From IMG/VR virus record IMGVR_UViG_3300009514_001427: 64,000 nt of DNA; one strand, 5' to 3'. Below, in pieces: positions 4,047 through 4,457 of the stretch. Both the position numbers and the translations under genes were made by a program. Origin of the DNA: a virus. The notes beneath the pieces were generated by a model, which saw only the letters and a list, made by a program, of their open reading frames with translations, did not search any database and was not told the DNA's origin. Within the stretch, counting starts at the first letter, position 1; each line of letters begins with the position of its first letter.

Positions 4047-4303
4047 TCCGCGTTTTAGTTTGGGGTATTTGTGGCTTTATTGGCAATATGTCAGGTCCAG
4101 GTGTTTTAGAAACCTGCGCGATGGTGGAAGATTTCCTTGAATTCCATGGCGTTAGACCGTATGATTTCGATGGAGACGAAGATGTAGACTTGGCAGATTT
4201 TGCCAAGTTCCAAAACGGGTTTGACGGGACAGGTTTCCGTACTCTGTCCCAGCACATAGAACCAGTACAAGAGGAAAGGTTTGCAAATGGAAGAGTTCAC
4301 TAA
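4043..4303 (+). CDS. protein with dockerin/EF-hand-like Ca-binding motif
   Basis: DFDGDEDVDLADFAKFQNGF motif; AAGGAG RBS; ATGA overlap with upstream gene. Confidence 0.5.
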   Translation: MIRVLVWGICGFIGNMSGPGVLETCAMVEDFLEFHGVRPYDFDGDEDVDLADFAKFQNGFDGTGFRTLSQHIEPVQEERFANGRVH

Positions 4304-4457
4304 GCTCAAAGAGCTGGTAGACGATTGTGCAGATGACTTGGAAAAAGCTGAGAAGGGCAACAAGTCAGCAGGCACGCGCGTCCGCAAGGCAATGCAGGAC
4401 ATCAAGAAGCAGGCTCAGGAAGTACGTCAAGCCATCTTGAAGCTTCGGGGCGATTGA
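4287..4457 (+). CDS. histone H1-like (Hc1-type) nucleoid protein, 56 aa; missing from ORF track (<60 aa)
   Basis: MEEFTKLKELVDDCADDLEKAEKGNKSAGTRVRKAMQDIKKQAQEVRQAI resembles chlamydial Hc1 N-terminal domain (...LLKAEKGNKAAAQRVRTESIKLEKIAK...). Confidence 0.55.
   Translation: MEEFTKLKELVDDCADDLEKAEKGNKSAGTRVRKAMQDIKKQAQEVRQAILKLRGD

Follow-up and report, generated by a model that had tools for sequence, protein, structure and literature searches.

Results

An Hc1-domain gene overlapping both of its neighbors

We analyzed a 64,000-nucleotide stretch of viral DNA (IMG/VR record IMGVR_UViG_3300009514_001427; hereafter the window) that carries a stand-alone Hc1-domain gene of 56 amino acids at positions 4287..4457 on the plus strand. 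As read from the sequence, the open reading frame (ORF) starts with an ATG at 4287, ends with a TGA at 4455-4457 and encodes a protein of 6.4 kDa. This ORF had been singled out in an original prediction made from the letters alone, and its translation is exactly the residues quoted there; the overlap with the 3' end of the upstream gene that was claimed at the same time is also present, with 17 nucleotides shared between the Hc1 ORF and ORF 4043..4303. The likely ribosome-binding region (4266..4286, plus strand) falls inside the 3' end of that upstream gene and holds a Shine-Dalgarno-like AGGAAAGG, the end of which is 7 nucleotides before the Hc1 ATG. On the downstream side the Hc1 stop codon and the ATG of ORF 4457..4684 overlap by 1 nucleotide (TGATG). 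The junctions are similarly tight on a related 257-kb contig (JGI 3300041077; locus L001), with an 8-nucleotide overlap upstream and a 1-nucleotide overlap downstream, and since both flanking ORFs are conserved at L001 the overlaps are between genuine genes that lie closely packed on one strand. The Hc1 protein of L001 is also found on a 557-kb NCBI contig (locus L164; JBSWQT010000001.1, 557,248 bp, of GCA_054390495.1), and a protein identical to that of the window (P0001) is already a called gene, with a precomputed PF07432 assignment, on a 153,040-bp JGI contig.

The protein matches PF07432, as had been anticipated, with 81.2 bits (E = 4.9e-23; gathering score 23.5), residues 1-53 aligning to model positions 1-54 of 57. 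The proteins P0003, L083, L091, LR756500.1 and that of Synechococcus phage S-SRM01 also pass this model. Searching exhaustively with HMMER and a profile of 31 relatives, we obtained 2,572 cluster representatives (clusters at 50% identity) at E<=1e-3, 851 of them at E<=1e-10.

We considered the possibility that the ORF is a chance reading frame and no gene, given that it has only 56 codons for amino acids and overlaps neighboring ORFs. Between the window and L001 the Hc1 gene retains 78% amino acid identity at 66.7% nucleotide identity, with non-synonymous divergence low (pN 0.148) and synonymous divergence saturated (pS about 1.0), and is thus under strong purifying selection. The gene also keeps its place: at L001 and at a further locus, L002, a Phenol_MetA_deg-like gene is followed by four small ORFs, Hc1, small ORFs, a DSPc phosphatase gene and an SNF2 helicase gene, and this conserved position supports Hc1 being a real gene. 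The Pfam match, the ortholog at the same position and the size of the family together refute the chance-ORF reading, which we regard as virtually impossible. The Hc1 ORF is a functional, conserved gene.

A near-neutral helical hairpin with an invariant basic core

All invariant positions of the family core motif (G-N-K-x-A-G-T-R-x-R-K-x-M-Q-x-x-K..A-Q..R) are present in the window protein. The universal core comprises D17, K20, G24, N25, A28-R31, R33-Q37, K40, A43, Q44 and R47, and on helix 2 it consists of A28 G29 T30 R31, R33 K34 A35 M36 Q37, K40, A43 Q44 and R47. This core is retained in the phage copies, whose functional surface is therefore intact.

AlphaFold2, run on the monomer with a 31-sequence alignment, gave a two-helix hairpin (helices 2-22 and 26-54) with a predicted local distance difference test score of 96.1, and the protein is accordingly predicted to be an antiparallel two-helix hairpin. 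Judging from the placement of residues along helix 2, R33, Q37, K40, Q44 and R47 would form a continuous polar and basic ridge beside its hydrophobic face. A sequence search of the PDB with the Hc1 protein found nothing, and Foldseek against the PDB gave no significant match, the best being dimer-forming generic helical hairpins at E = 1.5 or worse. The top structural neighbors in BFVD are phage proteins that are uncharacterized or annotated 'Histone H1', among them 'Histone H1 [Pseudomonas phage ZC08]', and none is significant. PHROGs holds no family for the protein, and the Pfam search gave no Linker_histone match in it at E<=1.

The protein contains 13 Lys or Arg and 12 Asp or Glu residues, for a net charge of +1 and an isoelectric point of 7.85; the charge is split, with residues 1-23 acidic (net -5) and residues 24-56 basic (net +6). 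Stand-alone Hc1 proteins as groups have net charges of -2 to +4. We recovered Hc1 ORFs by motif at 112 of the 162 loci fetched (Planctomycetota genome loci and IMG/VR contigs in which the motif had been found), and all are short and devoid of a Lys/Ala-rich tail, the few longer reads being N-terminal extensions; the median length is 59 residues in the Planctomycetota set and 58 in the viral set. The longer representatives from the exhaustive search likewise have N-terminal calling extensions or non-basic tails, and never Lys/Ala-rich ones.

The original prediction held that the protein closely mirrors the N-terminal domain of chlamydial Hc1 and is a candidate DNA-compaction factor. The N-terminal domain is indeed homologous; the protein is, however, no equivalent of HctA, since its score with the HctA equivalog model NF051889 is 32.7 bits, where the cutoff is 100, and only positions 7-47 of the 121 in the model align. 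The compaction proposal is not supported, given this score, the missing DNA-binding tail and the net charge of +1. Lacking a Lys/Ala-rich tail and being almost neutral, the protein is not a polycationic, histone-H1-like condenser.

Cellular relatives point to Planctomycetota

We searched for cellular relatives using one genome per GTDB species, with taxa assigned by record title. At least 426 loci encode relatives, and 75 of the best 80 are from Planctomycetota, with full-length proteins at 55-72% identity. These best 80 span Phycisphaerae, Planctomycetales, Isosphaeraceae and Sedimentisphaerales and include two complete chromosomes; the remaining labels are Anaerolineales (two), Actinomycetes (one) and 'bacterium' (two). 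The Planctomycetota loci have a cellular context, with genes for MlaE, STAS, an anti-sigma-type kinase, a BamB-like protein and an amylase with Dockerin_1. In 71 of the 80 (L083-L162, counted over approximately 5001-5800 in each) hc1 lies directly upstream of a FabA/FabZ-like dehydratase gene on the same strand, with a median gap of about 96 nucleotides, a pairing that spans Phycisphaerae, Planctomycetia and the two Anaerolineales-labelled loci. Across the Planctomycetota genomes sampled, hc1 appears to be a conserved chromosomal gene.

With hidden Markov models of the two sets of relatives the window protein scores 100.6 bits (Planctomycetota set) and 83.0 bits (IMG/VR set), and its mean identity is 61% to the former and 49% to the latter. 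In a neighbor-joining tree the copies of the window's lineage form a separate monophyletic clade (96% bootstrap) with fixed substitutions at K23, S27, K41-Q42 and Q48. Because the unrooted tree consists of three monophyletic groups, nesting within it is uninformative and we used only distances.

A comparison of k-mer composition had been suggested together with the original prediction. The tetranucleotide profile of the window is nearer to Planctomycetota loci (median r 0.57) than to other Hc1-bearing viral contigs (0.27), the latter being the only contrast set, but the G+C content is 47% against a median of 63% in the Planctomycetota loci. The correlation with the related loci L001 and L164 is 0.86-0.87.

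PF07432 in other phages

The original prediction also took Hc1-type proteins to be characteristic of the Planctomycetes/Verrucomicrobia/Chlamydiae (PVC) superphylum. This is too broad, as the family occurs in a cyanophage, in moraphages, in huge-phage records and on at least 232 IMG/VR contigs (G+C content 32-39% in those fetched). The cyanophage is the isolated Synechococcus phage S-SRM01 (Kyanoviridae, 240.8 kb), whose protein QPX48246.1, annotated 'histone H1', matches at 53.8 bits. Three huge-phage records of the type described by Al-Shayeb (LR756500.1, LR745206.1 and LR756502.1) carry the family, as do four complete jumbo moraphages for which Bacteroidota hosts have been predicted (Perez-Hernandez et al. 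2025, PMC12619734). Since PF07432 is found in phages of varied hosts, membership in the family alone gives no hint of a PVC host, and only similarity at the level of the subfamily can do so. A search for a recurrent neighbor of phage-borne Hc1 genes found only lineage-specific neighbors.

The surrounding gene block

The Hc1 gene sits in a tightly packed block of plus-strand genes (2350..10291) that is collinear with L001. The block opens with a gene for a Phenol_MetA_deg-like outer-membrane protein, followed by small Cys-rich and membrane ORFs and Hc1; after Hc1 come a 440-residue secreted-type ORF, a DSPc phosphatase with an AAA_33 kinase, and an SNF2 helicase. Directly upstream of Hc1, ORF 4043..4303 (plus strand; 86 residues, 50% identity in L001) has a hydrophobic N-terminus and one calcium-loop or dockerin-like motif (4163-4201), and directly downstream, ORF 4457..4684 (plus strand; 75 residues) is hydrophobic with an acidic C-terminus and is conserved in L001 with the same 1-nucleotide overlap. 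Promoter- and terminator-like sites (2234-2263, 1990-2023 and 6032-6056) are no commoner than in shuffled sequence.

The upstream gene had been described as a dockerin-motif gene, one of several in the window. A recurrent motif is real: a single calcium-loop-like sequence, D-F-D-x-D-x-D-V-D-x-x-D-F, occurs once in each of four different ORFs (3948-3986, 4163-4201 and 5135-5173 on the plus strand; 39090-39128 on the minus strand), where 0.02 would be expected by chance, and it is conserved in L001. The dockerin assignment did not hold, as none of the four ORFs matches Dockerin_1 (PF00404), an EF-hand model or an NCBIfam model (Pfam to E<=1 for three ORFs and to E<=0.001 for the fourth; NCBIfam to E<=1 for all four). 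The duplicated calcium-binding segments that define PF00404 were not detected at E<=1 in ORFs 3696-4046, 4043-4303 and 4706-6028; a true Dockerin_1 match is seen in the planctomycete amylase at L091.

The SNF2-type helicase of the window (7247..10291; 1,014 residues) lacks an intein, whereas that of L001 (11733..16199; 1,488 residues) contains an intein with a LAGLIDADG endonuclease. The helicase of the window has no relative in IMG/VR.

A very large phage-like element

The clade to which the window's Hc1 belongs occupies a fixed position in very large phage-like genomes, on contigs of 153 kb to approximately 560-580 kb, and the window is collinear with the 257-kb and 557-kb contigs. Many of its ORFs match PHROG families, and the phage-family matches in the window include phrog_62, 11974, 3677, 34511, 8143, 19918 and two HNH endonucleases. 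No major capsid protein, terminase or portal was found among about 40 scanned ORFs of the 64-kb window, which belongs to a contig of at least 153 kb. We infer on good grounds that the element is a huge phage.

The gene content of the window further includes a 3,808-residue ORF with LamG, an S8 protease, an ADP-ribosylglycohydrolase, FolD, a PurN-like gene, glutamine synthetase, bS21, a cold-shock protein and 16 tRNA genes. The bS21 gene (16458..16673, minus strand), which scores 45.1 bits with TIGR00030 (cutoff 28.95), is paired with a CspA/CspE-like cold-shock gene (16666..16899, minus strand), bS21 lying immediately downstream with an 8-nucleotide overlap; the pair is conserved in the 557-kb L164, and relatives of bS21 are found on contigs of up to 581 kb. 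They are metagenome proteins with no named organism, so that bS21 does not corroborate a Planctomycetota host. A metabolic cluster on the minus strand (32490..36231) encodes a PurN-like formyltransferase, glutamine synthetase (Gln-synt_C, 2.3e-72) and FolD. The nearest relatives of the glutamine synthetase (72-77%) are on metagenome contigs of the same lineage, and the nearest named cellular ones, at about 60% identity, are from Acidobacteriota and Kouleothrix (Chloroflexota).

The giant ORF (18530..29956, minus strand) carries a Laminin_G_3 domain, and two adjacent ORFs of about 535 residues (57166..58767 and 58774..60390, plus strand) belong to no Pfam or PHROG family. One 750-residue protein of L164 matches three places in the window, namely the C-terminal portion of the giant ORF and each of these two ORFs, which indicates a paralogous module family. 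Searched against the phage collection, ORFs 30654-32411 and 57166-58767 gave no match.

The 16 tRNA genes, all on the minus strand (38324..62781), are scattered among small ORFs, two of which encode the HNH homing endonucleases (44765..45283 and 47140..47619). Beside this region, a 178-residue ORF (63320..63856, minus strand) matches phrog_19918 (1.6e-45) and RF-1-domain release-factor families and is a candidate ArfB-like ribosome rescue protein. An 875-residue ORF (48132..50759, minus strand) matches MVP_shoulder (1.7e-23), Vault_3 (1.7e-9) and Vault (3.5e-4), with no PHROG match; a homolog of the major vault protein is unusual for a phage-like genome.

Discussion

What the phage-borne Hc1 protein may do

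The reading that we favor, and to which we give an even chance, is that the window encodes a phage-supplied copy of a host-type small Hc1-domain protein associated with the nucleoid or with gene expression. Under this proposal the protein would self-associate through the hydrophobic face of its hairpin, in the manner of this domain in chlamydial Hc1, and the helix 2 ridge (R33-Q37-K40-Q44-R47) would engage whatever partner the cellular protein has, most probably nucleic acid. The copy might then influence nucleoid organization or gene expression in the infected cell by some means other than polycationic condensation.

Several points weigh against this proposal. For both dimerization and nucleic-acid binding we extrapolate from Chlamydia and from a helical wheel, and our full-text literature searches turned up no experiments on stand-alone Hc1-domain proteins. 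The genes around Hc1 in the window encode small membrane or secreted proteins, with no DNA-handling genes among them, and the usual partner of hc1 in cells, a fatty-acid dehydratase gene, fits poorly with a nucleoid role. Peptides from the query, GTRVRKAM among them, served as seeds for the genome and IMG/VR sets, so that the invariance of that stretch in those sets is partly by construction. Finally, the phage clade lies between the Planctomycetota and viral groups of the unrooted tree and is nested in neither, and capture of the gene from a Planctomycetota host is therefore not demonstrated.

The neighborhoods also lend themselves to a different explanation, in which the stand-alone Hc1 domain is an adaptor or regulator that makes protein contacts, possibly in envelope or lipid metabolism, and has no nucleic-acid role. 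The adjoining FabA/FabZ-like gene in cells, the membrane and secreted ORFs around the window copy, the near neutrality of the protein and the want of a significant structural match to any DNA-binding fold are all in keeping with it. We nevertheless think such a role quite unlikely, as Arg, Lys and Gln make up most of the invariant residues and line one face of a helix, an arrangement that would be typical of nucleic-acid contacts, and the only family member that has been studied is a nucleoid protein. A third explanation retains the host Hc1 protein as the target: the phage copy could antagonize or hijack it by forming heterodimers with a host protein 60-70% identical to itself, in the way that truncated H-NS antagonists do. 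The domain is a dimerization module in chlamydial Hc1, the window protein and the Planctomycetota proteins have their hydrophobic core positions in common, and the phage clade has fixed surface substitutions (K23, S27, Q48 and K52) relative to the Planctomycetota consensus. Yet all of the family-invariant polar and basic residues are kept, which is not how a loss-of-function mimic would look; the cellular proteins are equally stand-alone, so there is no truncation; and the host is not established. We consider antagonism unlikely.

Compaction of the phage genome by a packaged or late-acting histone-like condenser, as put forward in the original prediction and as speculated upon in the moraphage paper (PMC12619734), draws on the facts that full-length chlamydial Hc1 condenses DNA, the E. 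coli nucleoid included, and that genes of the PF07432 family turn up repeatedly in phages with very large genomes. We find it very unlikely, and would not expect the window protein to condense the E. coli nucleoid. Quite apart from the near-neutral charge, the Lys-rich C-terminus that binds DNA is absent, as the partial HctA alignment reflects; no recognized head or packaging gene adjoins Hc1 within the window; and the family also occurs in viral contigs of 40-70 kb, and so is not tied to giant genomes.

Which host?

The presence of bS21, a CspA-type cold-shock gene and an outer-membrane-type protein argues for a bacterial, probably diderm, host, bS21 being specific to bacteria. The original prediction read the Hc1 protein as a host hint, and in the narrower sense that its closest cellular homologs are from Planctomycetota the hint stands, although neither glutamine synthetase nor bS21 corroborates it. 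We regard a Planctomycetota host as plausible, at roughly even probability; the lead comes from one 56-residue protein.

It is also quite possible, if a little short of an even prospect, that the host is not a planctomycete and that the likeness of its Hc1 reflects old or indirect transfer, the host belonging to another phylum such as Chloroflexota or Acidobacteriota. The named relatives of the glutamine synthetase include none from Planctomycetota, two Anaerolineales-labelled loci encode Hc1 at 65-67% identity, the Planctomycetota proteins do not enclose the phage clade in the tree, and the G+C content of the window is well apart from that of the Planctomycetota loci. Against this stand the preponderance of Planctomycetota among the best loci, two complete chromosomes among them, and the tetranucleotide correlations, for which other viral contigs are the sole contrast; moreover, the Anaerolineales-labelled loci show the planctomycete hc1-fabZ order and may be misbinned.

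If the favored function and a Planctomycetota host are combined, the window and its relatives of 257, 557 and approximately 581 kb would be huge Planctomycetota phages that use a planctomycete-type Hc1 to reprogram the nucleoid or gene expression, a joint claim that we hold only tentatively and think somewhat improbable. Planctomycetota are noted for their condensed nucleoids, and to our knowledge very few viruses of this phylum are known. Were the claim true, a lineage of Planctomycetota phages would also carry bS21, a cold-shock protein, glutamine synthetase and a homolog of the major vault protein. In any event, Planctomycetota provide a sequence-level host lead for the lineage to which these very large phage-like contigs belong.

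An Asgard-labelled relative

The L164 contig was deposited in a metagenome-assembled genome labelled 'Promethearchaeota archaeon' (Asgard), and it is collinear with the window at 55-87% amino acid identity. Among its genes are bS21 and CSD genes of bacterial type and the Hc1 gene, which bears the label 'histone H1'. Most likely this contig is a misbinned bacterial virus, and anyone surveying Asgard genomes for chromatin proteins could be led astray by the label. The 'HC1' of a 2026 preprint on Asgard chromatin is a strain name and is unrelated to the Hc1 domain. More generally, a PF07432 match by itself implies neither DNA compaction nor a PVC host, the match being to a 57-residue helical domain unlike histone H1. 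The stand-alone Hc1 domain is better viewed as a widespread, strongly conserved small protein that is repeatedly carried by phages.

Comparison with known systems

According to published work on chlamydial Hc1, the protein dimerizes through its N-terminus and binds DNA through its Lys-rich C-terminus (PMC2848022 and PMC3469542, which cite Pedersen 1996 and Remacha 1996). What the window protein shares with chlamydial HctA (NCBIfam NF051889) is the homologous N-terminal domain with its GNK.A..R.R motif, at model positions 7-47. It ends at residue 56 and so is missing the Lys/Ala-rich C-terminal tail of about 70 residues, and HctA and the window protein differ at several of the positions that do not vary among stand-alone family members. 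The Lys/Ala-rich tail is the part of HctA that resembles histone H1; as the 'histone H1' label derives from this tail, it does not fit the window protein. To eukaryotic linker histone H1 the likeness is one of inherited name only, since the winged-helix globular domain and the Lys-rich tail are both absent.

The stand-alone Hc1 proteins of Planctomycetota (55-67 residues, chromosomally encoded) resemble the window copy in architecture, length, core, near-neutral charge and a C-terminal 'IL..R'. They differ from it in setting, usually having a FabA/FabZ-like neighbor where the window copy lies in a phage-like block devoid of fabZ. The phage proteins already recorded under PF07432 belong to the same family, have the same stand-alone architecture and are likewise found in large phage genomes, but they are 41-63% identical to the window protein and lie in other genomic neighborhoods (in LR756500.1 the Hc1 gene is the sole gene in common with the window), and their known or predicted hosts are others, namely Cyanobacteria, Bacteroidota and Pseudomonas. 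A phage-borne Hc1 domain is of a kind that has been reported before, and the window copy is an ordinary further member of it.

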